The notes under the pieces are model-generated. The model had not been told where the DNA came from and ran no database searches. It was given only the letters and a program-made list of their open reading frames with translations. A stretch of DNA of 64,000 nt from Chlamydiota bacterium (GTDB lineage: Bacteria; Chlamydiota; Chlamydiia; Chlamydiales; Parachlamydiaceae): the NCBI GenBank assembly GCA_013287815.1, contig JABDDC010000006.1, positions 959-64,958 of the forward strand. Direction: 5' to 3'. The translations under genes were made by a program, and so were the position numbers. This document shows, one piece after another, positions 29,351-62,600 of the stretch (position 1 is its first letter; each line of letters starts with the position of its first letter).

Positions 29351-29353
29351 AGA

Positions 29354-39878: not shown

Positions 39879-40976
39879 ATGGCGACAAATTCTTTTGGCA
39901 CACTTTTTAAGATCACCACATGGGGGGAATCACATGGTAAAGCTCTCGGTGTGGTCATCGACGGCTGTCCGGCAGGGCTTGAAATCAGTGATGATGAAAT
40001 CAATCTTGAATTGGCCCTACGGGCACCAGGCAGAAATCCTTATACAACCCCCAGAAAAGAATTGGATATTGGGGAAATTTTATCCGGCGTTTTTGAAGGC
40101 AAAACTACAGGGGCTCCTATTTGCATCATGATCCGTAATAAAGACCAGGATTCAAGCAAATATACCCCGATCAAAGATTTACTTAGGCCTGGCCATGCTA
40201 ACTTCACCTACCTCGAAAAATACGGTATATTCGATTACCGTGGAGGAGGAAGATCTTCAGCCCGAGAAACTGCTGCAAGGGTAGCTGCCGGGGCCATCGC
40301 TAAGAAAATCTTGAAGCATTATCATATTTTTGTAGCAGCTTATATCAAGCAAATAGGAACGATAGTAGCAGAAATCAATTACTTGGATATACACGCATTA
40401 AGGCAAACAGCCTACAACGATCCACTATTCTGTCCCGATCCGAAGGCTTCTGCGAAAATGAGCGAGTTGATAGAGCAAGCAAAAAAAGAGGGTGATTCCC
40501 TTGGGGGTGTCATCGAATTTCTTGCGGTTTCCGTTCCTGTCGGACTTGGCGATCCTATTTACGAAAAACTGGAAGCCAAGTTGGCGAGTGCGATGATGAG
40601 CATTCCTGCTACAAAAGGATTTGAGTTTGGATCGGGTTTTCAGTCAGTCACGATGAAAGGTTCGGAACATAACGATGCCTTTATTTATGAGGATGGCAAA
40701 GTAGAAACAAAGACAAATTTTGCCGGTGGCACGCTTGGGGGTATTTCAACGGGGATGCCAATCATTGGCCGGGTCGCTTTCAAGCCCACTTCGAGCATTA
40801 AAAAACCCCAGGAAACATTGGATATTAAAGGGGAACAGAAGACATTTGAACTGCCGGAAGGATCGAGGCATGATCCATGCGTTGCGATCAGGGCTGCTCC
40901 TATTGTAGAGGCCATGACAGCATTAACGATAGTCGATTCCCTGCTCATGAACAGATGCGTAAGGTTAGATGTCTAA
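39879..40976 (+). CDS. aroC: Chorismate synthase
   Basis: FGTLFKITTWGESHGKALGVVIDGCPAGL, RPGHANFTY, GGGRSSARET and GSRHDPC signatures. Confidence 0.95.
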   Translation: MATNSFGTLFKITTWGESHGKALGVVIDGCPAGLEISDDEINLELALRAPGRNPYTTPRKELDIGEILSGVFEGKTTGAPICIMIRNKDQDSSKYTPIKDLLRPGHANFTYLEKYGIFDYRGGGRSSARETAARVAAGAIAKKILKHYHIFVAAYIKQIGTIVAEINYLDIHALRQTAYNDPLFCPDPKASAKMSELIEQAKKEGDSLGGVIEFLAVSVPVGLGDPIYEKLEAKLASAMMSIPATKGFEFGSGFQSVTMKGSEHNDAFIYEDGKVETKTNFAGGTLGGISTGMPIIGRVAFKPTSSIKKPQETLDIKGEQKTFELPEGSRHDPCVAIRAAPIVEAMTALTIVDSLLMNRCVRLDV

Positions 40977-41532
40977 TATCATAAAGAAGACCATTATTCT
41001 GTGCGGATTACCGGGCTGCGGCAAGACGACCGTAGGCAATTGCCTAGCAGAAAAAATTTCCAGCTCATTCATTGATGTGGATACCTTAATAGAAAAAGAA
41101 TATGCCGACACCATGGGTGAATTGCTGACATGCCGCCAGATCTTCGCTCATCAGGGAGTTCCATTCTTTCGAGAGTTGGAAAAAAGGGTGATTTCCTCTC
41201 TAGCACAAAAATCGCATCAAGATGCAATTATCTCAATTGGCGGTGGCGCTATGGAGAATCCCGAAAATGTAAAAGTATTAAAGTCAATTGGACTCGTTGT
41301 CTACCTTAAGGTTAATCTAAAAGAACTTTTTAAGAGAATTAACCGAAAGGGACTCCCCGCTTATCTCGATCCCGCCGATCCACTTGGTTCTTTTGAAAAG
41401 TTGGCTCAGAAACGAATCCCCATTTACAGTAATGCTGCTGACATTGAAATAGAAGCAGATTCATTGACACCGGAAGAAATAGCCACCAAAATTGTTGAAA
41501 AAATTTTGCAAATCGGGAAGTCGACTTACTAA
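40969..41532 (+). CDS. aroK: Shikimate kinase
   Basis: Walker A LCGLPGCGKTTVG, IDVD, FRELE and SIGGGA. It overlaps the aroC end by 8 nt. Confidence 0.85.
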   Translation: MSNIIKKTIILCGLPGCGKTTVGNCLAEKISSSFIDVDTLIEKEYADTMGELLTCRQIFAHQGVPFFRELEKRVISSLAQKSHQDAIISIGGGAMENPENVKVLKSIGLVVYLKVNLKELFKRINRKGLPAYLDPADPLGSFEKLAQKRIPIYSNAADIEIEADSLTPEEIATKIVEKILQIGKSTY

Positions 41533-41612
41533 TCTACATGAATTTTATGTAATTTCTTGTGTAGATTGGGTGCTTAAGGTATTATTCTAATAAAGAAGGT
41601 CAAAGGTCCACG

Positions 41613-42794
41613 ATGAATATTGCGCGGCATATAGTAAAAGAATTGCTAAAAGCGGCTAAAGAATATCCTGTTTTAGCCATTTTAGGTCCACGGCAATCCG
41701 GAAAAACAACTGTCGTAAAAACGACTTTCCCTCATCATAATTATGTTCTGCTTGAAGAGCCTGACATATTGGAATTTGCACTTTCAGACCCAAGGGCCTT
41801 TTTAAAACACTATTCCAATGAAAATGGACTCATCATTGATGAAGCTCAGCATGCACCTGACCTGTTTTCTTATATCCAGGGTGTCGTCGACGCAGAACAG
41901 ATACCGGGCAGATTTATCCTTACCGGATCGCAAAATTTCTACTTAAACGAGCAAATCTCTCAAACACTGGCAGGCCGTGTAAATATTTCCATACTCTTGC
42001 CGCTTTCTTTGGGTGAAATAAAATCAACTTTACAGCTCCCGGACAGTTATGAAAGCTTACTATTTGAAGGACAATATCCCAAAGTAATTGCACAAAACAT
42101 AGATCCCCATAAATGGTATCAGAATTATATCCATACTTATATAGAACGTGATGTCAGACAGATAAAAAACATTACGGACCTGCATCTTTTCCAAAAGTTT
42201 TTGGCTCTTTGTGCAGGAAGAATAGGGCAGGTTGTGAACTGGTCTGATTTAGGAAGAGATTGTGGAATTTCCACAAAAACAGTTACTTCATGGATCTCTC
42301 TTCTACAAGCTAGCTATCTTATATTTTTGCTTTACCCTCATCACGAAAATTTCAACAAACGTATAATAAAATCACCTAAACTTTATTTTTATGATGCTGG
42401 AGTAGCCTGTGCCCTTTTAAAAATCAGAACACAGGATCAGTTGAGTATGCATTATCTGAAAGGGCAATTATTTGAATCTTTTGTGCTCGCAGAAATCACC
42501 AAACAGTCATTTAATCAAGGTTTAAATCCGCACCTTTATTTTTGGGCAGTTCAGTCAGGCCATGAGGTCGATTGTCTTCTAGGAAAAGATAATGATTTGA
42601 TTCCAATTGAAATAAAATCCTCTGAAACGATTAACTCGAAATTCTTTGAAGGTTTGCAGTATTGGAGCAAACTAGCCTCAAAAGACCCAGCTAAAGGCTA
42701 TTTAATTTATGGTGGAAAAGAACGGCAAAAACGCAGCCTTGGTACTGTTCTCGGTTGGGATGCAATAGATAAAATAGAACAGGAGATATTATGA
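41613..42794 (+). CDS. AAA-family ATPase with a DUF4143-type C-terminal domain
   Basis: Walker A GPRQSGKTT and Walker B LIIDEAQ. The C-terminal half (PKLYFYDAGVACALL..., EVDCLL..IPIEIKSS) is typical of AAA_14+DUF4143 proteins with a restriction-endonuclease-like fold. ATGA overlap with aroB. Confidence 0.8.
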   Translation: MNIARHIVKELLKAAKEYPVLAILGPRQSGKTTVVKTTFPHHNYVLLEEPDILEFALSDPRAFLKHYSNENGLIIDEAQHAPDLFSYIQGVVDAEQIPGRFILTGSQNFYLNEQISQTLAGRVNISILLPLSLGEIKSTLQLPDSYESLLFEGQYPKVIAQNIDPHKWYQNYIHTYIERDVRQIKNITDLHLFQKFLALCAGRIGQVVNWSDLGRDCGISTKTVTSWISLLQASYLIFLLYPHHENFNKRIIKSPKLYFYDAGVACALLKIRTQDQLSMHYLKGQLFESFVLAEITKQSFNQGLNPHLYFWAVQSGHEVDCLLGKDNDLIPIEIKSSETINSKFFEGLQYWSKLASKDPAKGYLIYGGKERQKRSLGTVLGWDAIDKIEQEIL

Positions 42795-43930
42795 CAAGAC
42801 AACTATCAATTACACTACCTTCAAAATCATATACCTACCCGATAGTCATTGGTGAAGGTCTTTTGCAGACGGATCAGCTGATTAAACATCTTCTCTCCCT
42901 CAAAGTTTCACAATATGCCATTATCACAGACACTACTGTAGAGACGCTACACGCAAAAATTTTAGCAATGCATCTAAACAATCATAAACTTAAAACAATA
43001 CTCATCTCCTTTCCTCCCGGCGAAGATCACAAATCCAGGGCAACGAAAGAGTTTTGCGAGGACAAGCTTCTTGGCATAGGAGCAGGAAGGGATACGTGCA
43101 TTATTGGCATGGGAGGGGGCATCGTCACAGACCTGGCAGGTTTTGTAGCCTCCACCTATTGCCGCGGCGTTCCTTCTGTCATGATTCCAACCTCTTTGCT
43201 GGCAATGGTGGATGCAAGCATCGGAGGTAAAACAGGCCTCAATGTTCCACAAGGAAAAAACTTGATAGGTACCATCACCCAGCCTACCGCTGTTTTCATT
43301 GATACTGCCACATTAACAACACTGCCGTTAGCTGAAATCAAAAATGGAATGGCTGAGATCATAAAACACGGATTGATAGCCGATAAAACTTATCTCGATT
43401 TCCTGAAAGCTAACGCCAAAAAGCTGCTTAATCTGGATTTACAGCTTATGGAAGAGGCCATTTACGGCAGCGTTGTCATCAAAGGAAAAATTGTCGAGGA
43501 AGATGAAGCCGAAAAAGGGAAAAGGCGCCTGCTTAATTTTGGCCATACTGTCGCACATGCCGTTGAGATTGCCACGGAGCATGATATCCCCCATGGCAGG
43601 GCAGTCGCCATTGGGGTCATCACAGAGAGCTACCTGGCCATGAAAATGGGACATCTGCAATTATCTGATTTCAATGCAATTTGCGACATCATTGACCTTT
43701 ACCAAATCGACCTCACCTGGCAAGGAACGCTCAAACCCGGTCATCTCCTGGATATTATGAGGATGGATAAAAAATCATTACGTCAAACACCAAGATTTGT
43801 CATCTTGAATGAAATTGGAAAACCTCTTGAATTTGATGGGCAATACTGCACGGTTGCTGAAGAAAAATCACTTCATCAAGCAATTGAATGGATGTGTTCA
43901 CATTTGATGATCAAAAACGGTGTTTGCTAA
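42791..43930 (+). CDS. aroB: 3-dehydroquinate synthase
   Basis: [57 protein letters not shown] and HGRAVAIG metal-ligand motifs. Confidence 0.9.
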
Positions 43931-46904: not shown

Positions 46905-48713
46905 ATGTCTAATACTCGTGTAGAAGTATCTCCGGAAAATCGCTGGAACATTGAATCATTATATGCTGATCTTTCAGAATGGAGAAAAGCTTTTCAAGCT
47001 TTTATCAAGGATCCTCAACAAAAGCCTCGGTGGCCATCTCTCGCTAAGAATAAAGGGAAGCTGGATCAGGGGCCGGAAAAAGTGAAAAAAACATTCGAAG
47101 AATTAGTCGTTATTGACCGAGCACTAACAAAACTTCTTACCTACATCCAGTTGAGACATAATGAAGATATTGCCAATCCCGAAGTTAAGGAAGCGTTGGG
47201 AGAAACCTTAATTTTAGCAAATGATTTGGCTCAAGAAACAGCCTGGATTCATACTGAGTTGTTGGCATTCCCCGAGGAGCTTTATCAAAAATACAAGTCT
47301 GATCCTGTCTTGGCTGATTTTAGCATCTATATGGAAAAAATATATCGATTTAAAAAACACTCTCTCTCCCTCGAAAATGAAGTATTGCTCGCTCAGGCGG
47401 ATCTCCCCTTGCAGGCCACTTTTAAAACTTTTAGCGCCATCAATGATGCCGACTTCAACTTTGGCCTTATCTTAGACAGTCAAGGCAGTGAAAGGCAGCT
47501 CACAAGTTCTAACTATAAGCTTTATATACATGATCGGGATCGACTCCTTCGTGAGAGGACGTTCAAACAATATCATGGACTGTATTTATCATTTGAAAAC
47601 ACCCTTTGCGAATTGCTTTCCGGTCTTGTCCAAAATCATATTTTTCAAATGCGAGCAAGGAATTACCGTTCCTGTTTAGATGCCTCTTTATTTTATAATA
47701 ATATTCCAACATCAGTCTATCATGCTCTGATCAAAGCGGTGAATAGTCGCCTCTCTTCTTATCAGCGCTATATGGAGCTGAGAAAACGAGTGTTAAAAGT
47801 TAACGAGCTTCATTTTTATGATCTTTTTGTCCCATTGACTCCGGAAGTCGATATTAATATGCCTTATAATGAAGCTGTGGAAGTGATTATAGACTCGGTA
47901 GCACCTCTTGGATCGCAATACCAAAATAATCTTGCAAAAGGTCTAAAAAAAGACCGCTGGGTAGACCGCTATGAAAACCTGAATAAGCATTCAGGTGCTT
48001 TTTCAGGAGGATGCTACGACAGCATGCCTTTCATCATGGTTAATTACAATGCCATTTTAAAAGACGTGTTCACATTAGCCCATGAAGCCGGTCATAGCAT
48101 GCACAGTCTTCACAGTTGGAAGCATCAACCCTATCAATATTGCGATTACCCTATCTTTGTAGCGGAAGTAGCCTCTACTTTTAATGAAGATCTTCTCACC
48201 CGTTCCCTTCTCAAAAAATGTACAGACAAAGCAACAAGAATCTACTTAATTAATCAAAAAATTGAAGACATTTGTGCTACCCTCTTTCGTCAAACGATGT
48301 TCGCTGAATTTGAACTGTTTATCCACGACCAGGCAGAAAAAGGAACCCCTTTAACTCCACAACTGCTTAAAAAGGAATATGGCGTCTTAAATCAAAAGTA
48401 TTTCGGTTCTACCATCTATCCTGATGAAGAGATTGAGATCGAGTGGGCACGCATCCCACATTTCTATTACAATTTTTATGTCTTTCAATATGCTACAGGC
48501 CTCAGTGCTTCACTTTATCTGTCAGAAAAAGTGGTTTCAGGAGGAGAGAAAGACCGTGAAGACTATTTGAGATTTTTAGAAGGTGGAAGTAGTAAATATC
48601 CGATCGATCTACTTAAAATAGCAGGAGTTGATATGGAATCTCCCCTTCCGGTTTTTTCCGCCATCGACAGGTTCGATAATTATTTGGCCGAATTAGAAGA
48701 ATTGTTAAAATAA
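46905..48713 (+). CDS. pepF: Oligoendopeptidase F (M3B)
   Basis: The HEAGHSMHS zinc motif, the length and the N-terminal W.L..LY pattern are typical of PepF. Confidence 0.9.
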   Translation: MSNTRVEVSPENRWNIESLYADLSEWRKAFQAFIKDPQQKPRWPSLAKNKGKLDQGPEKVKKTFEELVVIDRALTKLLTYIQLRHNEDIANPEVKEALGETLILANDLAQETAWIHTELLAFPEELYQKYKSDPVLADFSIYMEKIYRFKKHSLSLENEVLLAQADLPLQATFKTFSAINDADFNFGLILDSQGSERQLTSSNYKLYIHDRDRLLRERTFKQYHGLYLSFENTLCELLSGLVQNHIFQMRARNYRSCLDASLFYNNIPTSVYHALIKAVNSRLSSYQRYMELRKRVLKVNELHFYDLFVPLTPEVDINMPYNEAVEVIIDSVAPLGSQYQNNLAKGLKKDRWVDRYENLNKHSGAFSGGCYDSMPFIMVNYNAILKDVFTLAHEAGHSMHSLHSWKHQPYQYCDYPIFVAEVASTFNEDLLTRSLLKKCTDKATRIYLINQKIEDICATLFRQTMFAEFELFIHDQAEKGTPLTPQLLKKEYGVLNQKYFGSTIYPDEEIEIEWARIPHFYYNFYVFQYATGLSASLYLSEKVVSGGEKDREDYLRFLEGGSSKYPIDLLKIAGVDMESPLPVFSAIDRFDNYLAELEELLK

Positions 48714-48862: not shown

Positions 48863-50932
48863 GTGCAGTATATATTAAATATGAAAAAAAAATCACCAAA
48901 AATGCTCATAGATTATGAGCAACGCCATAAATTAATTGCTGGTTATCCACTGTTTCGAAATTTGACAAGCCCAGAAATTGATGATTTGGTTTTGATCTCT
49001 TTCGAAAAAACTTATAGTCCACAAGAGGCAATTGTCAGCCAAGGTGATATCGTCGATTCCGTTTATCTTATCGCCGCCGGCGAAATTGAAGTAACCAGCC
49101 GGCAAGCTGATAGCGATGCAATGGTCCCTATACTTGTCCTGAAGACGGGGGATGCCATCGGACTTGACCCGCAAGGATTTTTTAGTCAAACGGGCGAACG
49201 CAAAGCCACCCTACAGGCAATATCAGATGTCATTTTGATTGGCTGGAAATTGGACATCTTTCACAAATTTCTACAAACACATCCTCAATTTCAATCGGCT
49301 TTGCTGCAAATCTCAGAATTGATGCTGCGGATGAGTTTTATTAAACAGGTTGATCCCTTTGCTAATCTACCTGTTGAAAAAATTTCGTGGCTGGCTAACC
49401 AGATCGAAGAAGTGACTTTCCCTGTAGGGACAGTCCTATTTCGCCAGGGAGAAATAGGAGACCGGTGTTATCTTGCGTGTTCCGGTAAAGTTGAGATTTT
49501 AATTGTTAATCAGCACGGTCAGGAAGAGAGATTTGCTATTATTGAGCCTCCCTCATTATTTGGTGAAATCGCCCTATTGGCAAATACACAACGGAATGCT
49601 ACAGCCCGCATGTTGGAAGACGGGAAATTGCTTATCTTAAAAAAAGATCATCTGCAAGAATTGATGAAATATCAATCGACTTCAGAATCAATCATGTCAC
49701 TTATCGTAGACCGTTGCCGACCAGTTCGGAAGCCAAACATTGAAATCTACCAGATTCAGACACAGGACAATCAAACCTCAACGATCCTTAAAGACAAGGA
49801 AAATGGGCGTTATTTTAAACTTTCAAAAGAAGGATTGCTTCTATGGCAGCAGCTGGATGGAACAAAAACATTGCAAAATATAGTGGTGGAGCTTCTTAAA
49901 ATATCCAGAAATTTTACTTTAAACGGCATAGCCACGACGCTATTTAATTTAGCAGACGCCGGCTTTGTGCTTCTGCCTGAAGTCGAATCACCCCAAAAAC
50001 CGGAAATCAGACAACACCTGACAATTTTTCAAAAATTGAAAACCGATTTTCAAAAACTAACTCACCTGAGCTTTGTTTTTAAAAATGTGAATGATAAGTT
50101 CACTTCCGTTTATCAAATCATGGAACCGCTATTTTTTTCGACAGGTCAAATTGCTATCTCACTATTGGTCTTTTCAGGGCTGATTTGTTTTGGTCTATAT
50201 TTTTCTAAGGCAATAGTGGCTATACAAGCCACCCACCATCTTTTAATCATACTGATAGCTCTATTTGCAGCTAATCTTCTATCCGTGGTCTTTCATGAAT
50301 TAGGCCATGGCCTAGCCGCAAAATTCTATAAACGCGATGTGAGTATGGCAGGACTCAAAGTGATTTGGTTTGGACTAGGGTTAGTTGTTTTTGTTGACAC
50401 TTCTGACATGTGGCTAAGCCATCGGCGATCCCGTATCATCGTTAGCCTTGCTGGACCTTATGTCGATATGCTATCAGCCGGGATTTCTAGTTTGCTTGCC
50501 TTACTAATTCCACAGCAAGAAATCTCCCTGTTTTTTTGGTTGCTTGCATTGACACTTTATTACGGTGTCTACAAAAATTTAAATCCTTTGACAGAAAATG
50601 ACGGCTACTCTGTTTTAAAGGAGGCATTAAACAATTCATATTTAAATCGATCAGCCTATTCCTGGCTGGTTCAGTTAAAATTAAAGGACCTTAAGGATCC
50701 CAAAGTCTGGAAAGAAAACTGTCCTTTAATCATCTATTGGTCCACCTGCCTTCTATTTCTGGCCATTGGTCTGACTATTGCTTTCGCCTTTGCGTACTTC
50801 TTGCAATTAATCCTTCCGCCAACTGTATTCGATATTCCAACTTTTCATCTCATGTGGTTCCTTCCTTTCCTCGTGATTTTAGGCTTTGTAAGTGCTTTTA
50901 GAAAGGAATACAAAAAATTAGTGAAGAGGTGA
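48863..50932 (+). CDS. 2x cNMP-binding domains, a PqqD-like domain and a membrane-embedded M50 (site-2 protease) metalloprotease
   Basis: The CAP-type blocks read GDIVDSVYLIAAGEIEV and GDRCYLACSGKVEI...LFGEIALL...RNATARM. GRYFKLSKEGLLLWQQLDGTKTLQNIV resembles PqqD/RRE domains. The TM region carries FHELGHGLAAKFY (HExxH) and NLNPLTENDGY (the NxxPxxxxDG motif of M50). An alternative ATG start lies at 48881. Confidence 0.75.
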   Translation: MQYILNMKKKSPKMLIDYEQRHKLIAGYPLFRNLTSPEIDDLVLISFEKTYSPQEAIVSQGDIVDSVYLIAAGEIEVTSRQADSDAMVPILVLKTGDAIGLDPQGFFSQTGERKATLQAISDVILIGWKLDIFHKFLQTHPQFQSALLQISELMLRMSFIKQVDPFANLPVEKISWLANQIEEVTFPVGTVLFRQGEIGDRCYLACSGKVEILIVNQHGQEERFAIIEPPSLFGEIALLANTQRNATARMLEDGKLLILKKDHLQELMKYQSTSESIMSLIVDRCRPVRKPNIEIYQIQTQDNQTSTILKDKENGRYFKLSKEGLLLWQQLDGTKTLQNIVVELLKISRNFTLNGIATTLFNLADAGFVLLPEVESPQKPEIRQHLTIFQKLKTDFQKLTHLSFVFKNVNDKFTSVYQIMEPLFFSTGQIAISLLVFSGLICFGLYFSKAIVAIQATHHLLIILIALFAANLLSVVFHELGHGLAAKFYKRDVSMAGLKVIWFGLGLVVFVDTSDMWLSHRRSRIIVSLAGPYVDMLSAGISSLLALLIPQQEISLFFWLLALTLYYGVYKNLNPLTENDGYSVLKEALNNSYLNRSAYSWLVQLKLKDLKDPKVWKENCPLIIYWSTCLLFLAIGLTIAFAFAYFLQLILPPTVFDIPTFHLMWFLPFLVILGFVSAFRKEYKKLVKR

Positions 50933-51152: not shown

Positions 51153-51536
51153 CTATTTTGTTTTATCACTTTTTTTAAAAAAATGGGCTATTTCAGGCTT
51201 CTCAACTTTGCCATTAGCGCAGTGTATAATCATTTCTTCCATTTCGTAATCGTCATATTTTAAAATGACATGGTTAACTTCCAAAAAAGTTAAGGCAGCT
51301 ACTGTACCGGTTCGTTTATTTCCATCAATAAAAGGGTGGTTGCAAACAATGTGATAGAGATATGCTGCAGCTTGATCATAAATAGTAGGATGTAGAAATT
51401 CCCCGAACATGGAAGCTTTTGGCATTTCTATGGCAGAAATTAGTAGTCCCATTTCTCTAATCCCATGGGCTCCGCCAAACTCATTAATGATTTCGGTATG
51501 AAAATCGATCACTTCTTCTACTGACAAAAAAATCAT
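51153..51536 (-). CDS. doc: Doc-type toxin (Fic/Doc family)
   Basis: The HPFIDGNKRTG motif (Doc variant of the Fic motif), 127 aa length and a 4 nt overlap with the upstream small gene. Confidence 0.85.
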   Translation of the reverse strand: MIFLSVEEVIDFHTEIINEFGGAHGIREMGLLISAIEMPKASMFGEFLHPTIYDQAAAYLYHIVCNHPFIDGNKRTGTVAALTFLEVNHVILKYDDYEMEEMIIHCANGKVEKPEIAHFFKKSDKTK

Positions 51537-51766
51537 CTATTTGTCAACCTCTGAAGTAGTTCATATTTTTTTTTAAGCACCTTTCTAAAAGCTGACTTAA
51601 CTAAATTGTCATTTGTCGCTTGTACAGACTGAATAACCATACCTCCATTTGGATTAATCACTATTTGAAATAATGCATTTTCATCTAATCCCGCGGCTTG
51701 TAGCAAGGTCTTATCAATAACAATGGCTTTACTATTTCCACTCTGAGTCAATTGTTTGATTATCAT
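51533..51766 (-). CDS. AbrB/MazE/SpoVT-fold antitoxin partner of Doc
   Basis: 77 aa. LTQSGNSKAIVIDKTLLQAAGLDENALFQIVINPNGGMVIQ fits the swapped-hairpin AbrB-like pattern. ggaggag lies upstream. It overlaps the doc start. Confidence 0.75.
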   Translation of the reverse strand: MIIKQLTQSGNSKAIVIDKTLLQAAGLDENALFQIVINPNGGMVIQSVQATNDNLVKSAFRKVLKKKYELLQRLTNR

Positions 51767-52189: not shown

Positions 52190-54670
52190 ATGAACTTTAT
52201 TCAAAAATTTGATGAATTAGGTAAGGATGATACGGCTTTAGCGGGAGGTAAGGGTGCTTCCTTAGGAGAAATGACCCAGGCAAAAATCCCCGTGCCTCCC
52301 GGCTTTGTTATACTAACCACGACCTTTGATAGATTACTTCAAGAAACAGAACTCGATGCCGAAATTACGGGAATTTTAGACTCGGTTAACCCCAAAATAA
52401 TCCATACTATCGAAAATGCCTCTGTACAAATTCAGAACTTAATTATTAACACATCTATGCCTGGGGATATAGAACAAGAGATCTTTTCATCCTTTAACAA
52501 TTTACGGTCAACATATGTTGCAGTGCGATCAAGCGCCTCGGCAGAAGACAGCTCATCGGCTTCCTGGGCAGGACAGCTTGATTCTTATCTTAACATCACT
52601 GAAAACAACTTGATTAAAAGCATTTTAAAATGTTGGGCTTCGCTCTTTACACCAAGGGCAATTTTCTATCGTTTTGAAAAAAGGATGCAAAACGAACCTA
52701 TTTCTGTTGCTGTGGTAATTCAGAAAATGGTTAATTCAGAACTCTCGGGAGTTGCCTTTTCTGTGCATCCTGTGACGGGAGACCATGAACAAATACTCAT
52801 TGAAGCAGGTTTTGGACTTGGTGAAGCAATCGTTTCTGGTCAGATTACTCCCGATAGCTACGTTGTCAGGAAAAAGCCTCTACACATCACAAACCTCCAT
52901 GTTAATGTTCAAACAAAAGCACTTTATCGCACTGAGGATGAAAATTTGGAAGAATTAAGTGCCTGGGAAACCCTTTCAGAAAAACAAGGAGCTCAACAAG
53001 TTCTTTCTGAACAACAAATTCTAGAACTATCAGAATTGATAATAAGAATCGAAAATCATTACAATTTCCCCTGCGACATCGAATGGGCTTTTGAAAATAA
53101 TGCCTTCTATATCGTCCAATCAAGGCCCATTACTACCTTAAAGACAAAACACAAAATTACCCCAATCATCCATGAGGAGCCAAAAAAAACCGGCTTAATT
53201 AAAGACGAAATTATGATTATGCGTGACCGATATGTTCCGTGTATATGGCCCCGATTTGCTATTACCTGGAAAGGGTTTGGTGATGTATACAAAGATGCAG
53301 GTATAACCGGATACACTCACATATGCCTCTATGACAAAGGGGAATTTCAGTCATTCCATCCCAAAAAAAACTTTGATGATTTCGCATCATATAATCTTAA
53401 TTTGCTCTTTAGTAAATCATTTGGTGACTTAAAAAAAATTCGGCAAAAAGGAATAGTTGCAGCAAAAAAGGCCAAAGCATTCTGTAAGGAATTTTCCAAA
53501 AAAGCTATTACTAAAATTGACCCTTATATAAAATTTTTAGATGAACTTATTCAAGTATATGGCGAAGTCGGTCGTGATAATGCCCGTTATTGGTTTTCTA
53601 CAAATTATATAATAGAGCAAGAGATCAAAAAATGCCTGGAAAAATACAACTATGAACAAATTCTAGAAATTTCACGTATAATGTCGCAATTAAACGAGCC
53701 ATCTTATAGTGAAGTTCAAGAGATGGATTTTGATCAAATGCTAGAAGAATATAAATCGAACAAAAACAAAAATGAGCTTAAGAAGACAATAGAAGCTTTT
53801 GTTGATAAATATTTTTGGTTTCCATATGAGTATATTGGTCCAGCGATTTGGGATTTTGATGCCGTTGTAAAAAGACTTGAAACCGGGAATTCTTTTCATG
53901 CATCTAGGGACTATAAATCAATAGCCAGGGATCAAAAGGCCTGTATTAAAAAATATTCCCTTTCGAAAAAAGTTGTGAAGTTATTCGGAATCAGCCAACT
54001 TCTGGCCCTTATGCGCGATGACAGAAAGTCCCTCATGTCGGAAACCTGTTACTATTTAAACGGAATTATTTTGCCAAATTTAGCCAAGTTATTGACAGTA
54101 TCCAGAGATAAGATTTTGTATGTCGATTCAGAAGTACTTCGAATGTTTAAAAAAGATCCCGACAAGGCAATCTCCATCCTCAAAGAACGGTCCGGTTTTT
54201 GTCTCTTCTACGCAATGATGAAAAACAGCTACGAATCAAAATTACTGCAGGGTGACGAAGCGCGTCAAATGATCAAAGAGATGGGAATTAATTTAAAAAC
54301 CGATCAGCAGGTCATCCAGGAGATTAAAGGCCAAAGTGCGTGCAAAGGAAGAGTTATCGGCAAAGTAAAAATCATGAAGACATCTCAGATTAGTTCATTT
54401 GAAGATGGTTTAATTCTCGTAACAGGAATGACTACCCCGGATTTTCTCCCCTTAATTAAAAAATCGGCAGCCGTTATTACAAACGAAGGTGGAGTGACTT
54501 GCCACGCGGCTGTCATTGCGCGAGAACTTGACAAACCCTGTATCATTGGCACAAAAATTGCGACCAAAGCTCTTCATGATGGAGACACAGTGGAAGTGGA
54601 TGCAGACAACGGGATAATAAGGGTTTTAGAACTCTTTTCCAAACCCGCTGTTACCCCTAAGGCTGCTTAA
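52190..54670 (+). CDS. PEP-synthase-like dikinase-type phosphotransferase with rifampin-phosphotransferase-like architecture (paralog 1)
   Basis: N-terminal PPDK_N ATP-grasp (AGGKGASLGEMTQAKIPVPPGF, VAVRSSASAEDS, CWASLFTPRAIFYR, DIEWAFENNAFYIVQSRPITTL). An unassigned roughly 400 aa central region. A C-terminal swivel domain with GGVTCHAAVIARELDKPCIIG. There is no PEP/pyruvate TIM-barrel domain. Confidence 0.8.
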   Translation: MNFIQKFDELGKDDTALAGGKGASLGEMTQAKIPVPPGFVILTTTFDRLLQETELDAEITGILDSVNPKIIHTIENASVQIQNLIINTSMPGDIEQEIFSSFNNLRSTYVAVRSSASAEDSSSASWAGQLDSYLNITENNLIKSILKCWASLFTPRAIFYRFEKRMQNEPISVAVVIQKMVNSELSGVAFSVHPVTGDHEQILIEAGFGLGEAIVSGQITPDSYVVRKKPLHITNLHVNVQTKALYRTEDENLEELSAWETLSEKQGAQQVLSEQQILELSELIIRIENHYNFPCDIEWAFENNAFYIVQSRPITTLKTKHKITPIIHEEPKKTGLIKDEIMIMRDRYVPCIWPRFAITWKGFGDVYKDAGITGYTHICLYDKGEFQSFHPKKNFDDFASYNLNLLFSKSFGDLKKIRQKGIVAAKKAKAFCKEFSKKAITKIDPYIKFLDELIQVYGEVGRDNARYWFSTNYIIEQEIKKCLEKYNYEQILEISRIMSQLNEPSYSEVQEMDFDQMLEEYKSNKNKNELKKTIEAFVDKYFWFPYEYIGPAIWDFDAVVKRLETGNSFHASRDYKSIARDQKACIKKYSLSKKVVKLFGISQLLALMRDDRKSLMSETCYYLNGIILPNLAKLLTVSRDKILYVDSEVLRMFKKDPDKAISILKERSGFCLFYAMMKNSYESKLLQGDEARQMIKEMGINLKTDQQVIQEIKGQSACKGRVIGKVKIMKTSQISSFEDGLILVTGMTTPDFLPLIKKSAAVITNEGGVTCHAAVIARELDKPCIIGTKIATKALHDGDTVEVDADNGIIRVLELFSKPAVTPKAA

Positions 54671-54792: not shown

Positions 54793-57249
54793 ATGAGTAT
54801 TACAAAAAAATTTGAAAGCCTAAGCATGCACGATAGTGATATAGCAGGTGGAAAAGGAGCCTCTTTGGGTGAAATGACCCAAGCGAAAATCCCTGTGCCC
54901 CCTGGGTTTGTTATACTCTCCTCTGCATTTGATAGATTCCTTGAAGAAACAGAGCTCGATGCAGAAATTGATGGGATCCTGGATTTCGTAGATATCAATA
55001 TGGTTCATACCATCGAAAATGCCTCCAAAAAAATTCAAAATTTGATCATAACCTGTCATATGCCCGATGACATTAGGCAAGAAATAATGGGGCCCTTTAA
55101 AGATTTAGGTGCGAAATATGTAGCCGTACGCTCAAGCGCATCAGCAGAAGACAGTGCCGCAGCAGCCTGGGCGGGACAGCTTAATAGCTATCTTAATGTG
55201 ACGGAAGAATATCTGATTATCAGCGTTCTAAAATGTTGGGCTTCACTCTTTACTCCTCGTGCAATTTTCTACCGAGTTGAAAAGAAGATGCATGACGAAC
55301 ATATTTCTGTTGCAATCGTTGTTCAGAAAATGGTTAATTCCGAAGTCGCAGGCATAGCCTTTTCGGTCCATCCTGTCACTGAAGATTACAATCAAATGAT
55401 CATTGAGGCCGGTTTTGGGCTAGGTGAGGCAGTTGTTTCCGGCCAGATTACTCCTGACAACTACATCATAAAGAAGGAACCCCTCCATATTACAAACATC
55501 CACGTGAAGGTGCAGAGTAGATTACTTTACCGTGTAGAAGACAAGGAGCTTGAGGATCCTAATATTTGGAAAACTCTTTCAGTCGAAGAGGGATCCAGAC
55601 AAGCCCTTTCCAAAGAACAAATTCTCGAGCTAGCCAAAATCATTCTTAGAATTGAAAAACATTACAAATTCCCATGTGATGTAGAATGGGCTTATGAGAA
55701 TCAAAATTTCTATATCGTACAGTCAAGGCCCATCACGACCTTGCAACCAAAGCAACACAAGAGTGCTGATTTAATATCAGTCACCGAAAGCTCCAAAATG
55801 ACCTCTAAGGAACAAAAAAAAATCAGTGAAGGTAAATATCGCTGGAATGTACGCCGCGACAGATATATCCCTTGCATATGGCCGCAAATCACGCATTATA
55901 ATCCAAGATTTTATAAATATACAGAAATTGATATTCCCGTGATTCATGCAACTATTTGGGAAAAGGGATATTGTAAGGTGCTAAGAGAGGAAGAATGCGA
56001 TAAAAAACTTGGGGAAAAGCAACTTAACATCCTCCTTCAACAATCTGCTAACTTAAAAAAAATTAGAGAAAAAGGAATCACTACGTGCACCCTGGCTTTA
56101 GATTTCTGCAAGGAGTTTTCTAAAAAAACTTATGAGAGGATAGACCCTTATATTAAATTTTTAGATGATTTTATTCCATTATATGAAGCAGTCATGTGGG
56201 ATAATATGATTTTCTGGGTTCTTACAAACACACCTCTTGAGAAAAGAATCATGACGCACCTCCAAAAATATAGTGAGGATGAAAGACAAGAAATAATTAA
56301 TACAATGTTTCAACTGACCACGGACTCTTATAGTGAAATTATTGAGGATGAATTTCAAAAACTTTTGAAGGAATTTAAGTCCGGTGAAGAAAAAAAAGAA
56401 CTTAGAGAACATATTAAAAACTTCTCTGATAAGTATTTTTGGTTTCCGTATGAATATGTAGGGCCTGGGATTTGGGATTTTGATACAGTTGTCAAAAAAC
56501 TTGAAACAAGCGAATTAGACCATAAGGAGAAAGATTATGTGTCTATAGTAAATAATCAGAAGGCATGCATCGAAAAATACTCCCTTTCTGATGAGATCGT
56601 GACCTTATTTAAAGTCTTCGAATTGACAGCCCTGATGCAAGACGACAGGAAGGGAACAATGTCTGAAACTTGCTACTACTTAAACGGTATTATTTTGCCG
56701 AAGTTAGCTGAGTTACTCGCTGTTTCAAGAGAAGAAATATTGTATGTCGACCAGGATATCCTCCGGCTTTATAAAAAAGACCCAGGCAAGGCAATCTCCA
56801 TTTTGCGCGAGCGAGTCAATTTTACACTGTTATTTCAAATAGATCAGGAAGTAACAATCGTAGAAGGGGAAAAAGCGCGCCAGATGGTCGAAGAATTAGG
56901 GATAGTCTTGCATGAGACTCATCCTGATTCAAAAAAAATAAATGGTCAAATAGCTAATAAAGGAAAGGTTGTCGGTAGAGCGCGTATTTTGAAAACGTCT
57001 CAGATCGATTCATTTGAAAACGGGTTAATCCTTGTAACCGGGATGACGACACCGGATTTTATGCCGCTCGCAAAAAAGGCGATTGCCTTAATTACAGATG
57101 AAGGAGGAATCACGTGTCATGCCGCTATCATTTCACGCGAACTGAATATCCCCTGCATCATAGGCACCAATATCGCAACCAAAGTTCTTAAAGATGGTGA
57201 GTTGGTAGAGGTAAATGCAGATCAGGGTGTGATTAATATTTTAGAGTAG
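54793..57249 (+). CDS. PEP-synthase-like dikinase-type phosphotransferase (paralog 2)
   Basis: It has the same three-part architecture as 52190-54670, with long identical blocks (GGKGASLGEMTQAKIPVPPGFVIL, YFWFPYEY.GP.IWDFD, MSETCYYLNGIILP, LILVTGMTTPDF). The swivel His is in GGITCHAAIISRELNIPCIIG. Confidence 0.8.
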   Translation: MSITKKFESLSMHDSDIAGGKGASLGEMTQAKIPVPPGFVILSSAFDRFLEETELDAEIDGILDFVDINMVHTIENASKKIQNLIITCHMPDDIRQEIMGPFKDLGAKYVAVRSSASAEDSAAAAWAGQLNSYLNVTEEYLIISVLKCWASLFTPRAIFYRVEKKMHDEHISVAIVVQKMVNSEVAGIAFSVHPVTEDYNQMIIEAGFGLGEAVVSGQITPDNYIIKKEPLHITNIHVKVQSRLLYRVEDKELEDPNIWKTLSVEEGSRQALSKEQILELAKIILRIEKHYKFPCDVEWAYENQNFYIVQSRPITTLQPKQHKSADLISVTESSKMTSKEQKKISEGKYRWNVRRDRYIPCIWPQITHYNPRFYKYTEIDIPVIHATIWEKGYCKVLREEECDKKLGEKQLNILLQQSANLKKIREKGITTCTLALDFCKEFSKKTYERIDPYIKFLDDFIPLYEAVMWDNMIFWVLTNTPLEKRIMTHLQKYSEDERQEIINTMFQLTTDSYSEIIEDEFQKLLKEFKSGEEKKELREHIKNFSDKYFWFPYEYVGPGIWDFDTVVKKLETSELDHKEKDYVSIVNNQKACIEKYSLSDEIVTLFKVFELTALMQDDRKGTMSETCYYLNGIILPKLAELLAVSREEILYVDQDILRLYKKDPGKAISILRERVNFTLLFQIDQEVTIVEGEKARQMVEELGIVLHETHPDSKKINGQIANKGKVVGRARILKTSQIDSFENGLILVTGMTTPDFMPLAKKAIALITDEGGITCHAAIISRELNIPCIIGTNIATKVLKDGELVEVNADQGVINILE

Positions 57250-58884: not shown

Positions 58885-59634
58885 ATGCACGGCGAAGAGA
58901 TTATTTATCAATGTCATGGGATCCAATTTAAGGGCTATTTGGCCTATGATATGTCCTATGAAGGCAAACGCCCGGCAGTGATTGTAGCGCATGGTTGGAC
59001 GGGTCAGGGTGAATTTACCAGGAAAAAGGCTGAAGCTCTTGCGGAGTTAGGGTATATCGGCTTTGCTATAGATATGTATGGCGATGCTAAAACCGCCGCT
59101 AATCAACAAGAATCCGAAGCTCTTATGTCTCCCCTGTTTATGGATCGAAAGCTATTGCAAGAAAGGATTTTAGCCGCGTATGAGACAGTGTCTAAATTCC
59201 GGTTGACCGATTCAAATAAAATCGGTGCGATAGGATTTTGCTTTGGCGGCCTCGTTGTAGTCGAACTTTATCGATCCGGAGCTCCCGTTTCGGGGGTTGT
59301 AAGTTTTCATGGAGTATTGGTCGACTCCCTATTTGGCTTTCAAGCGAAAAAAGTTCCCTTAGCACCAAAGATTAGCGGTTCTCTGTTAGTCTTGCACGGC
59401 TATAAAGATCCTCTAACCCCGCAAGACGACCTCCTGAAATTTGAAGCAGAAATGAACGAGGCCGGCGTGGATTGGCAGTTGCTCACTTATGGACAAGCTT
59501 GTCACGCATTTACAAATCCGAAAGCAAAGGCTCCCGATTTAGGACGTGCTTACGACCCTCTTACCGATCATAGATCCTGGCAGTCCATGCGTCTTTTTTT
59601 TAAGGAAGTGTTTCACTCTTTATCGGCAGACTGA
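58885..59634 (+). CDS. Dienelactone hydrolase family protein
   Basis: RPAVIVAHGWTG, GAIGFCFGG (Cys nucleophile elbow) and LVLHGYKDP...CHAF. The start is taken at MHGEEIIYQ, 3 nt after the pit stop (the ORF track starts 51 nt upstream, inside pit). Confidence 0.8.
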   Translation: MHGEEIIYQCHGIQFKGYLAYDMSYEGKRPAVIVAHGWTGQGEFTRKKAEALAELGYIGFAIDMYGDAKTAANQQESEALMSPLFMDRKLLQERILAAYETVSKFRLTDSNKIGAIGFCFGGLVVVELYRSGAPVSGVVSFHGVLVDSLFGFQAKKVPLAPKISGSLLVLHGYKDPLTPQDDLLKFEAEMNEAGVDWQLLTYGQACHAFTNPKAKAPDLGRAYDPLTDHRSWQSMRLFFKEVFHSLSAD

Positions 59635-62600
59635 ATTGTAAGCTTTTTATTGAGTTTTTCCAGCGAAAGGTAAAGTACGGGTGTAATAAAAAGTGTGATT
59701 AATTGTGAAAGCATGAGCCCTCCGATGATGACAAGTCCCAAAGGACGCCTGGCTTCGGCTCCAGCCCCGATCCCGATGGCAATAGGGAGTGCACCCGCGA
59801 TAGCCGTTAAAGTAGTCATCATGATGGGACGGAACCGGACAATGCACGCATCATAGATGGATTCTTCGGGAGATGTCCCTTTTTCGCGGATATTTTCTAA
59901 AGCGTAATCTATCAATATTATCCCATTTTTCTTCACGATTCCGATAAGCAGTATAATCCCCAGGAATGAATACAAAGAGAGGCTATACCCCGTCAGTTCC
60001 AGGGTCAATAGACCCCCTAGAATTGCTGGGGGCAGCGTCGTCAAGATAGTGATTGGATGGATATAACTTTCATATAAGATTCCCAGGACAAGATAAATGA
60101 CGAGAATCATCACCAGAAGCAAGATTCCTGCACTCTGCAAAGACTCCTCAAATATCTGAGCTGTTCCAATCACTTCCCCTTTCACACTTTCCGGCAGTAC
60201 TTCCGTATTCATCTTTTGCAATTGTTTAAGAACATCCTCTAAAGAAAAATTGGGGTCAATATTAAACGATATCGTTACGCTGGGAAATTGGTTAATGTGA
60301 TTAACGCTATCGGATCCGAGCCCAACCTTCCACTCTGCAACAGAGCTCAATTGAACAAGCTCGTTTGTTATGTTAGAACGTACCTCAAGGAGATCGAGGG
60401 CGGTTGGATCCTTTTGTAAAGAAGGGAGCACTTCCACGATCACATTATATATGTTCGCCGGTGTGTAAATCCTCGAAATTTTTCCTCCACTGAAGGCGAG
60501 ATCCAGTGTACGTTCTATATTTTCAGCACTGATTCCAACTACGTAGGCCTTATCTCTAAGGACATTGACAAAAAGCTGAGGGGTATCGACCTCCAGATCA
60601 CTGCTTACCCCCTGCAGTTCCGGCATGGCTTTCATGCGCCTTTCAAATTCTTTGGCAGCAGGAAATAAATCCTCCGGGTGCAAGCTTTGCATCTTGTACT
60701 GGTAAGCACCTTTGACTACATTTCCCACAGACAAATCGATCATAGGAATAACTTTATACACCGTACTAAGCCCAACAATCTGTGATGTCTGACGGGATAA
60801 CTCACTTATGACTTGTTTCATAGGCTTCCTTTGACTAAGCGGCTTTAAACTAACAAAGGAACGTCCATTGCGGTATCCCTTATAGGGGGCTACAGAAAGA
60901 AATCTTCCGATATTTGGATCTTTTTCAAAGATATCGGTAACATGCTTTTGATACTCTCTCATTCTATCCGGAGAGGTACCCTGAGCTGCCTGACTATAAA
61001 CAACGAAATATCCAATGTCCTCATCAGGCATGAAATCTTTTTTAAGGACGATAAAAAGGTAAAGGCTGTACAATGTGCAGATTAAAAACAGGGCTATAGA
61101 GACCCAACGGTGCTTTAGAACCCATTTTAAACTTGGTTTGTAATATCCAACCATAAAGTTATTCACCCGATCGCCAAAATGGAGCCGCTTTTTTTCTTCT
61201 TGTTCGCTTCTTGGATGGATAAAGAAGCTGCAAAGCATCGGGGTCAGTGTCAAAGAGATGAATCCGGAGAGAAGGGTAATAATCGTCAGCGTCACGGCAA
61301 ATTCGGAGAGTACCCTTCCAAACAATCCGGACATGAATAAGATAGGAATGAATACGGCAACCAAAGATAAAGTCATTGACAAGATAGTAAACCCTATCCG
61401 CTTAGACCCTTCCAGAGATGCTTTCCAAGGGCTTTCCCCAGCTTCCACACGGCGGACGATATTCTCAATAACAACAATCGCATCGTCAATGATGAATCCC
61501 AATGATAAAATTAGCGCTAACAGAGAAAGGTTATCCAGACTATAGTTAAACATTTTCATGAAGATAAATGTTCCGACCACAGACAACGGAAGCACCAGGG
61601 CCGGAATAAGAGTTTCAACAGGCTTTCCAAGATAGAAAAAAATAATTAATACAACTAAAAAGAAAGCTATGACCAGGTTAAGTTGGACATCCCGTATTGA
61701 ATCGCTAATAGATATGGAACGATCATGAAAGGCATTCAAAGTTAGGGTGGGAGGGAGCTCGGCAATAATCGAAGGAAGATATTTATTAGCATCCTTGGAA
61801 ATCTGAACAACATTTGCACTGGGTTGAGGTCTTATCACTATCGAGACAGACGGAAGCTTTGAATCCTTGGTAAAATAGGTCCAAACCGTTTTATAATCTT
61901 CCTGACTGTCAATAGCTTTTCCGACGTCTCGAATGCGAAGGAAAGCCCCTCGTTGATATTTAATGACTAAATCTTCATAAAATTTTGCTTTCCTCAACTG
62001 TCCCGATGTGTTGACAGTCAGCGCCTTATTAGGCCCTTCTAACCTCCCTGAAGGCAAATAGGGATTGGCTTGAATAACCGTTCTTGAAATGTCATCCAGA
62101 GAAACATTCTGGATCGCCATTAGCCTTGGATCCACCTGCACACGAACGGCCGAAGGGGATCCGTAAAGTTGTACGTCTGCAACACCATTGATCAACGCAA
62201 ACCGTTGGGCGATGATAGTGTTGGCATAGTCGTACATTTCGCCGGAAGGCATCGTGTCAGAAGTCAATGTGTATAGTAATATAGGTTCCTGAGCAGGGTT
62301 AACTTTTCTAAAGCTGGGTGCGCTTGGGAGATCCGCAGGCAAGAAAGGAAGTGCTCTGGTGATAGCTGTTTGAACATCCAAAGCCGCTACATTGATATCT
62401 TTGCTAAGATCGAATTGAAGAATAATATTGGTATCGCCAGGAGTGTTGTTCGAGAGGACTTGAAGCAAGCCTGAAATCGTAAGAAATTCTCTTTCTAATG
62501 GGGTAGCAATGTTATTTGCCATCTCGTCAGCATTGGCCCCGGGGTATGGTACATCCACATTAATAAAGGGATAAGCTACATCCGGCATATTGCTCACCGG

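Follow-up and report, generated by a model that had tools for sequence, protein, structure and literature searches.

The stretch analysed here, referred to as the window, comprises 64,000 nucleotides of contig JABDDC010000006.1 (GenBank assembly GCA_013287815.1, positions 959 to 64,958 of the forward strand) from a Chlamydiota bacterium of the Parachlamydiaceae, and represents nearly all of a 65.4-kb soil-metagenome contig. The sequence was located in a single sequencing run, of soil-metagenome DNA. A GTG-started open reading frame (ORF) of 689 aa at 48863-50932 on its plus strand very probably encodes a membrane protease in which two cyclic-nucleotide-binding (CNB) domains and a RiPP recognition element (RRE; RiPP, a peptide made by the ribosome and modified post-translationally) precede a site-2 protease (S2P) core of the M50 type. 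This order along the protein, CNB, CNB, RRE and S2P/M50 membrane core, was obtained from Pfam, from profile comparisons and from AlphaFold2 models. A preliminary description made from the letters of the window had divided the ORF into two cyclic-nucleotide (cNMP) domains, a PqqD/RRE-like segment, a polytopic region with an HExxH motif and the NPLTENDG motif of site-2 proteases, and all four parts were located by Pfam, motifs and AlphaFold2 models compared by Foldseek. The true start is probably the ATG at 48902 rather than the GTG at 48863; the database gene call P0001 (676 aa) starts at this ATG, and the N termini of homologues align to Met-14. Residue numbers refer to the 689-aa version from the GTG, unless the 676-aa numbering is indicated. 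The following features were assigned.

48863-50932, plus strand: whole ORF from the ORF list, likely start at 48902
48968-49312, plus strand: CNB domain A, residues ~36-150 (Pfam cNMP_binding; CRP model over residues 35-149)
49355-49714, plus strand: CNB domain B, residues ~165-284 (best Pfam stretch over residues 184-269)
49739-49957, plus strand: RRE/PqqD-like docking domain, residues ~293-365 (PF05402, AlphaFold2, Foldseek)
50138-50929, plus strand: S2P/M50-type membrane core, residues 426-689 (hydropathy, AlphaFold2, Peptidase_M50, profile against 3B4R)
50294-50308, plus strand: HELGH zinc-binding/catalytic motif, residues 478-482 (sequence, 47 homologues, alignment to the Methanocaldococcus jannaschii S2P structure 3B4R, MjS2P)
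50393-50413, plus strand: VDTSDMW family signature (homologue alignment)
50582-50605, plus strand: NPLTENDG second S2P motif, residues 574-581 (sequence, homologues, alignment to MjS2P)

A word-indexed search retrieved 11 close full-length homologues with 42-65% identity, a profile search retrieved about 55, and a full-length alignment was constructed with 46 homologues. When 1.84 billion cluster representatives (50% identity) were searched exhaustively with the profile, 149 of the best 150 matched in the protease core, the majority along the whole length, with scores of 526-952 bits over these 150; the last of them is a 2,659-aa protein that matches in the CNB part only. A further 4,823 proteins were found at E ≤ 1e-30. 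A chance ORF is ruled out by the 150 best homologue clusters, most of which align from end to end. An AlphaFold2 model of the protein built from 47 homologues reached a predicted local distance difference score (pLDDT) of 90.7 and a predicted TM-score (pTM) of 0.70, and the C-terminal 405 residues, modelled separately, gave a pLDDT of 85.6 and a pTM of 0.77; both models are confident. The structure search with the full model was dominated by matches to the cAMP- and cGMP-dependent protein kinases PKA and PKG, and the RRE matches described below came from the C-terminal model.

Pfam cNMP_binding (PF00027) matched two stretches of the N-terminal half with an E-value of 4.2e-33. The binding cassette of domain B is canonical (FGEIALL...RNATA), with Gly-221, Glu-222, Arg-231 and Ala-235 (676-aa numbering) near-invariant across the 47 homologues. 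The cassette of domain A is divergent (GDAIGL...GERKAT): the usual Glu is replaced by Asp and the loop is longer, the Arg is kept, and Gly-83, Gly-87, Gly-98, Arg-100, Ala-102 and Thr-103 (676-aa numbering) are near-invariant in the same set. In Foldseek the tandem pair matched the CNB-A/CNB-B arrangement of PKA and PKG regulatory subunits with E-values of about 1e-16, and the PDB matches include trypanosome PKA regulatory subunits (PKA-R) with bound nucleosides, which are described as cAMP-independent. No helix-turn-helix DNA-binding domain accompanies the pair in the ORF, and a CAP-like transcription factor was excluded on this ground. Thus, of the two CAP-type domains initially proposed, the presence of two CNB domains was borne out, whereas the CAP type was not, the closest resemblance being to the regulatory subunits of PKA and PKG.

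The ORF is one of three genes for CNB-domain proteins in the window, the others lying at 21992-23161 and 29354-31396, and Pfam agreed in this with the initial count of three. Likewise, in agreement with the preliminary description, a Pfam scan of window ORFs of 110 aa or more revealed no cyclase domain, three large ORFs lying outside that scan (13413-16487, 59613-62696 and 54793-57249, the last scanned with NCBIfam only). The first two of these have the size of AcrB and, with 27-28% identity, match the stretch of the related locus L077 that is also matched by the ACR_tran ORF 10333-13416. Cyclases were not seen in any annotated relative locus either. From the domain composition, a cyclic nucleotide would be the ligand of the CNB pair and would gate the cleavage.

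The two other CNB-domain proteins of the window are reductases. The gene at 21992-23161 (plus strand) encodes an FNR-like NAD-binding reductase to which a single cNMP_binding domain is fused. The region 27989-31396 (minus strand) encodes a cytochrome P450, followed by a reductase with two cNMP-binding domains and BFD-[2Fe-2S], FAD and NAD domains. Two such P450-reductase pairs, 48-53% identical to that of the window, were found in a Waddliaceae metagenome-assembled genome (MAG) within about 2.3 kb to either side of the protease homologue (L080, 7180-9874 and 14311-17718). A cNMP-sensing redox partner of a P450 is unusual in itself, and it recurs together with the protease.

The segment following the CNB pair was initially taken to resemble PqqD and RREs, and the profile, the predicted fold and the structural matches agree that it is a real domain of this type. 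PF05402 (PqqD) matched residues 308-345 with an E-value of 7e-4 and 20.3 bits, which is below the gathering score of 23.4, and precomputed PF05402 matches exist for many of the homologues. In the AlphaFold2 model the segment forms a three-stranded sheet (strands 280-286, 292-298 and 303-307, 676-aa numbering) followed by three helices (309-317, 324-334 and 340-352), which is a winged-helix arrangement. The best PDB matches of the C-terminal model in Foldseek were all RRE proteins. They were led by the lasso-peptide B1 proteins TfuB1 and TbiB1 (TM-scores of 0.63-0.70 on the target, probabilities of 0.99-1.00), with TfuB1 6jx3_B on top (0.70 and 1.00), and followed by TigE, CteB, SuiB, MccB, TglHI, SkfB and PaaA. 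TfuB1 and TbiB1 have been solved with leader peptides, and several of the RRE matches are RiPP enzymes with a bound leader or precursor. The E-values of these matches are weak (at least 0.07), which is no surprise for a domain of 85 residues; the matches are uniform in kind, and Pfam agrees with them. Ile-295, Leu-296, Lys-297, Tyr-304, Ser-308, Glu-310, Gly-311, Trp-315, Asp-319 and Gly-320 are invariant in the close homologues. By analogy with the matched proteins, the domain may dock a specific small protein or peptide.

The C-terminal part matched Peptidase_M50 (PF02163) over residues 472-582 with 28.5 bits, marginally above the cut-off of 27.2. A profile of the family matched the S2P of M. 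jannaschii (3B4R) with an E-value of 3e-5 over both metal-ligand motifs, placing HELGH on HELGH and NLNPLQENDGY of the family on NLIPAFPMDG of MjS2P. MjS2P is missing from the top 50 Foldseek matches and was matched by the sequence profile instead. His-465, Glu-466 and His-469 of the first motif, as well as Pro-562, Asp-567, Gly-568 and Tyr-569 of the second (both in 676-aa numbering), are invariant in the 47 homologues, and the Asp of NPLTENDG is predicted to be the third metal ligand. Both motifs named initially, the HExxH of the polytopic region and the NPLTENDG motif, thus hold up against the homologues and the MjS2P alignment. The strongly conserved sequence VDTSDMW, which was used as a scan pattern to retrieve relatives, follows directly after a beta-hairpin and possibly serves in substrate positioning.

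Hydropathy and the AlphaFold2 secondary structure suggested six transmembrane helices and a beta-hairpin at 495-511 for the membrane core, and both termini were predicted to be cytoplasmic from hydropathy and the positive-inside pattern. HELGH is located at the C-terminal, cytoplasmic end of the second predicted transmembrane helix (AlphaFold2 helix 460-488, hydrophobic part 459-477), so that the motif lies at the membrane. If the hairpin is re-entrant, the Lys/Arg-rich loops 478-492, 519-524 and 582-628 and the C terminus are all cytoplasmic, and the charge pattern and AlphaFold2 secondary structure then place HELGH and NPLTENDG on one cytoplasmic face. The pattern is best explained by a model in which the active site opens to the cytoplasmic side and the CNB pair and the RRE make up a cytoplasmic N-terminal half.

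This combination of domains is by no means rare, and it is common in metagenomes. When one genome was scanned per species, the complete form turned up in Gammaproteobacteria, a Waddliaceae MAG, Chloroflexota, Methylomirabilota, Deltaproteobacteria, Actinomycetota, Armatimonadota, Burkholderiales, Acidobacteria, Elusimicrobia and cyanobacteria. Variants with a single CNB domain are found among the relatives; an FHA domain replaces the CNB pair in locus L041 (9503-11269) and about 40 other Streptomyces and Catellatospora loci; and the protein of Azotobacter vinelandii (L077, 9767-11200) consists of RRE and S2P only. Because CNB, single-CNB, FHA and bare variants exist, the RRE-S2P unit appears to accept interchangeable cytoplasmic sensor modules. 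The database names of these proteins are generic ("cyclic nucleotide-binding domain-containing protein", "putative peptide zinc metalloprotease"). Literature searches combining cNMP with M50, S2P or RRE, and RRE-Finder with M50, gave nothing relevant, and the literature searched contained no description of a CNB-fused S2P or of its pairing with Os1348-type proteins. None of the CNB-RRE-S2P proteins appears to have been studied so far.

Clustering of the neighbouring genes in the related loci revealed a small gene adjoining the protease. Three sampled peptides matched NF038399 (Os1348 family NHLP clan protein) with 50-57 bits against a cut-off of 40, and matched Nif11, NHLP and PF14407 more weakly. 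The gammaproteobacterial and Waddliaceae relatives, which are near the window protein, have a divergent peptide of the pattern MATLRxAL...KDP...FNxKVLGxLGI, ending in a Ser/Lys-rich tail, often with a terminal Trp. The two types can be aligned, a profile comparison connects them (E 5e-5), and the combined profile matched PDB entry 6LK7 with an E-value of 2.6e-9. This chain of 85 residues has the size of Os1348 and is probably the Os1348 structure. A match to the combined profile was found within 3 kb of the protease in 38 of the 46 CNB-type loci, and within 500 bp in 29. Conversely, none of the 58 peptide matches in these loci is more than 3 kb away from a protease. Among 80 independent metagenome contigs the linkage was seen at 22 of 36 loci, and at 14 of the 18 with at least 500 bp of flanking sequence on both sides.

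In nine loci (L007, L010, L012, L015, L017, L018, L022, L026 and L028) the gene directly upstream of the protease, with a product of about 340 aa, is polyprenyl-synthetase-like (PF00348, E 8e-12). It is translationally coupled, overlapping the protease start in several loci, and yields a cassette of peptide, prenyl-synthase-like protein and protease. One gammaproteobacterial MAG carries two protease paralogues 5.6 kb apart (L001, 2430-4418 and 10001-12016), each with a match to the peptide profile within 80 bp. Partner peptides from Acidimicrobiia and actinomycetes (L020 3-623, L021 4670-5344 and L023 2-439) have tails of 80-150 residues, composed of short Gly/Ala/Asp/Val/Thr-rich repeats after ...RVSK-SAFALGKLLG.

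The fusion of an RRE to an S2P is already known from the daptide peptidase MpaP; the addition of the CNB domains and the Os1348-type partner are new. The protein shares with MjS2P and other S2P/M50 enzymes such as RseP and SpoIVFB the polytopic core, with HExxH and N-x-x-P-x-x-x-x-D-G aligned to MjS2P, and differs from them in its accessory domains, a CNB tandem and an RRE. SpoIVFB has a cytoplasmic nucleotide-binding CBS domain and RseP is gated by PDZ domains, gating by accessory domains being a habit of the S2P family. The closest curated family is MpaP/DapP (NF041824), which like the window protein has an RRE fused N-terminally to an S2P-type HExxH protease. The match covers residues 300-634 with 92.1 bits against a cut-off of 300, so that the protein was not placed in an already characterised family, and MpaP has no CNB domains. 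MpaP is an RRE-dependent intramembrane peptidase to which removal of the daptide leader has been assigned (Ren et al. 2023, bioRxiv 10.1101/2023.03.08.531785; Nat Commun 14:1624). YydH/LiaK (NF058609), an HExxH membrane protease from a RiPP pathway, matched weakly over residues 402-603 (45.2 bits against 225), with only the membrane core aligned and the RRE and CNB domains outside the match. Membership in the daptide or epipeptide (YydH/LiaK) families was rejected on these scores and on gene context.

A second S2P-clan enzyme acting as a membrane-bound RiPP leader peptidase is TmcP (DUF3267), the S2P-like leader peptidase of the TMcins (PMC13252029). It differs in that it has no counterpart of the last two transmembrane helices of MjS2P and in that its substrate is itself a transmembrane peptide, and the same report mentions neither an RRE nor a cNMP domain for TmcP (PMC13252029). 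Os1348 of Pseudomonas sp. Os17, the namesake of the partner family, is a GacA-controlled precursor-like protein of 85 aa with a dimeric crystal structure, the loss of which lowers antibiotic activity (PMC7726476). In Os17 it is neighboured by a GNAT protein, an HExxH peptidase that is soluble and gluzincin-like, and a dehydrogenase of the SagB type (PMC7726476). Thus, the small proteins beside the protease relatives belong to the Os1348 family, whereas the Os17 neighbours include no S2P and the window has no Os1348-like gene. Another CNB protein tied by its name to bacteriocin-type peptide systems is TIGR03896 (cyc_nuc_ocin, "bacteriocin-type transport-associated protein"), which matched weakly over both CNB domains; the match reached 41 bits against a cut-off of 161 and was confined to these domains. 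Haft 2010 mentions neither TIGR03896 nor cNMP. By analogy, the window protein is best read as working like the RRE-S2P leader peptidases MpaP and YydH/LiaK while being a member of neither family.

Based on the domain identities, motifs, fold and topology pattern of the protein and on the linkage in its relatives, a substrate, a cut site, a ligand and a gating step may be proposed. The RRE would capture an NHLP-clan small protein of the Os1348 family by its leader-like helical domain, the S2P core would cut the docked protein at the membrane, and the CNB pair, by binding cAMP or cGMP, would decide on the accessibility of the docking site or of the active site. In the long-tailed peptides, the hydrophobic LGxLG stretch after the helical domain would be the most plausible cut site. 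The mechanism has a precedent, because RRE-fused S2Ps (MpaP) and the S2P-like TmcP remove leader peptides. In this genome the substrate gene would be situated away from the protease, unlike in most relatives. This reading of the window gene, a cNMP-gated and RRE-guided intramembrane peptidase with its substrate encoded elsewhere in the genome, is in our judgement about evenly balanced between right and wrong.

Several observations weigh against it. No Os1348-like peptide or remnant was found in the six frames of the window by tblastn or by three profile hidden Markov models: the best E-value was at least 0.2 in tblastn, and 1.0 and 5.6 with the divergent-type and Os1348-type profiles, respectively, the combined profile giving no match at E ≤ 1. 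The small ORFs flanking the protease show no likeness to the Os1348 family and none adjacent to it is precursor-like. Neither a polyprenyl-synthase-like gene nor another RiPP enzyme is present in the window. An adjacent peptide is likewise missing from the four closest relatives (50-65% identity), whose contigs are short, and a metagenome scan for this subclade added one more contig, L092, of 2.4 kb. The substrate of the subclade may therefore be a different one. Even in the linked loci most partner peptides stop 0-5 residues from a conserved ...R[VI][SN]K, and a classical scheme of leader removal and core release fits poorly because such peptides have no obvious core. On the side of the ligand, the domain A cassette is divergent, some CNB domains bind ligands besides cAMP and cGMP, as in the nucleoside-bound trypanosome PKA-R, and there is no cyclase nearby among the ORFs scanned.

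On the other hand, the RRE, CNB and catalytic residues are invariant in the peptide-less subclade at 50-65% identity. Because the RRE and the catalytic residues in particular are retained, a retained function can be argued, and the protein looks functional with a substrate that is located elsewhere or has changed. The suggestion made initially, second-messenger-controlled intramembrane proteolysis or peptide maturation, consequently fared in two ways: the domain calls and the peptide linkage of the relatives speak for it, whereas for this gene neither a precursor nor a modifying enzyme was found in the window. Control of the activity by a cyclic nucleotide is suggested by the domain composition.

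A broader proposal is more tentative. The family as a whole could be the first second-messenger-gated intramembrane protease, in which cAMP or cGMP licenses the RRE-guided cut of an NHLP-clan protein; the window subclade would have become uncoupled from its neighbour and might share a broader cNMP regulon with the P450 reductases that carry CNB domains.

The immediate surroundings of the gene bear on the alternatives. Two flanking features were assigned by TIGRFAM profiles.

46905-48713, plus strand: pepF, oligoendopeptidase F of family M3B (TIGR00181, 564.7 bits against a cut-off of 490.6)
51153-51766, minus strand: Doc (death-on-curing) toxin (TIGR01550), 220 bp downstream of the protease, with an overlapping gene

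The pepF gene is located immediately upstream on the same strand, and the same order is found upstream of a 56%-identical homologue (L088, 1-174). It is a possible functional neighbour, and the two may form a cleave-then-degrade pair or be adjacent by chance. The next gene upstream encodes a hybrid histidine kinase. The gene overlapping Doc on its upstream side encodes 77 aa without a family match and is presumably the Doc antitoxin.

This setting leads to the question whether the protease carries out classical regulated intramembrane proteolysis, that is, a cNMP-responsive cut of a membrane regulator such as an anti-sigma factor, or of remnant signal peptides. The RRE-like domain would then be a general protein-protein adaptor, and PepF, encoded upstream, would break down the cleavage products in the cytoplasm. 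In its favour, the motifs of the S2P core match those of MjS2P, no peptide partner is present in the window or adjoining its four closest relatives, pepF lies directly upstream here and in L088, and the histidine kinase gene is the next one upstream. In E. coli, signal peptides are cut by RseP and broken down by an M3 oligopeptidase, which also counts for this explanation. However, no anti-sigma or sigma gene adjoins the protease, the pepF neighbourhood was found in just two of the five subclade contigs, and the RRE shows residue-by-residue conservation with relatives in which the NHLP-clan peptide is tightly linked. Because of this linkage, peptide processing is favoured over the release of an anti-sigma factor, and we consider classical proteolysis unlikely.

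A somewhat smaller probability is given to a protease that works on a docked small protein as proposed above, with a CNB pair that is not a nucleotide sensor and is instead a dimerisation or autoinhibitory module or a receptor for another small ligand. The Asp and the longer loop in the cassette of domain A would fit, as would the match to a cAMP-independent, nucleoside-bound PKA-R and the lack of a cyclase in the window and in the annotated relative loci. Yet the FGE...R-x-A-T cassette of domain B is canonical and near-invariant over 47 homologues, and the two other CNB-fused enzymes in the window suggest an organism that uses cyclic nucleotides.

The gene could also be an orphaned relic that has lost its peptide partner and is decaying or substrate-less, which would agree with the absence of an adjacent peptide in the window and in the whole subclade and with the insertion of the Doc toxin-antitoxin pair just downstream. 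This is improbable: the ORF is uninterrupted, none of the signature residues of the catalytic site, the RRE and the CNB domains has been lost, and the five subclade members, at 50-65% identity, are full length with the same invariant columns, as under purifying selection. Least probable of all is a genuine leader peptidase of a RiPP pathway, similar to that of daptides or epipeptides, with its biosynthetic genes elsewhere in the genome, for although NF041824 is the best curated match and NF058609 also matches, both scores are far under the cut-offs (92 against 300 and 45 against 225), no aminotransferase, oxidative decarboxylase, methyltransferase or radical-SAM epimerase neighbours were seen in the window or the relatives (in the window, no daptide modification gene or Thr-terminated precursor within ~20 kb of the protease and no radical-SAM gene among the scanned ORFs), and the partner peptides of the relatives are of the Os1348 family, without the ELExMEAP...Thr-COOH pattern of daptide precursors.

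S2Ps and RRE-guided RiPP enzymes have each received much study. Direct control of an S2P or of an RRE-guided RiPP enzyme by a cyclic nucleotide was not found in full-text literature searches. If the CNB pair of the RRE-guided peptidase gates cleavage, it would constitute a new class of bacterial cNMP effector and a new post-translational checkpoint in the maturation of peptide natural products or in small-protein signalling, in that the maturation of a peptide or antibiotic, or the release of a small signalling protein, would depend directly on cyclic-nucleotide levels. The two-gene module of NHLP-clan protein and CNB-RRE-S2P protease is compact, spans many phyla and is easily tested, and the peptide-less subclade offers a natural contrast for asking about other substrates.

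Further genes were noticed in the window. Downstream of the protease, tandem paralogues at 52190-54670 and 54793-57249 (plus strand) each encode a PPDK_N ATP-grasp domain and, at the C terminus, a PEP-utilizers swivel domain. Their scores do not reach the cut-offs for phosphoenolpyruvate (PEP) synthase, rifamycin phosphotransferase or PigC/RedH. A PPDK_N gene is also found near the Waddliaceae protease homologue. At 3342-4829 (minus strand) a DUF6851 domain is joined to the second helical-bundle domain of vanadium chloroperoxidase, with no match in NCBIfam. Genes of the shikimate and aromatic amino-acid pathways are scattered through the window, comprising an aroD-aroE fusion, pheA, DAHP synthase, aroC, aroK and aroB.

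6180-7637, 20834-21916, 36510-37295 and 39879-43930: shikimate/aromatic amino-acid genes

A gene for a DUF4143/AAA_14 ATPase is inserted between aroK and aroB.

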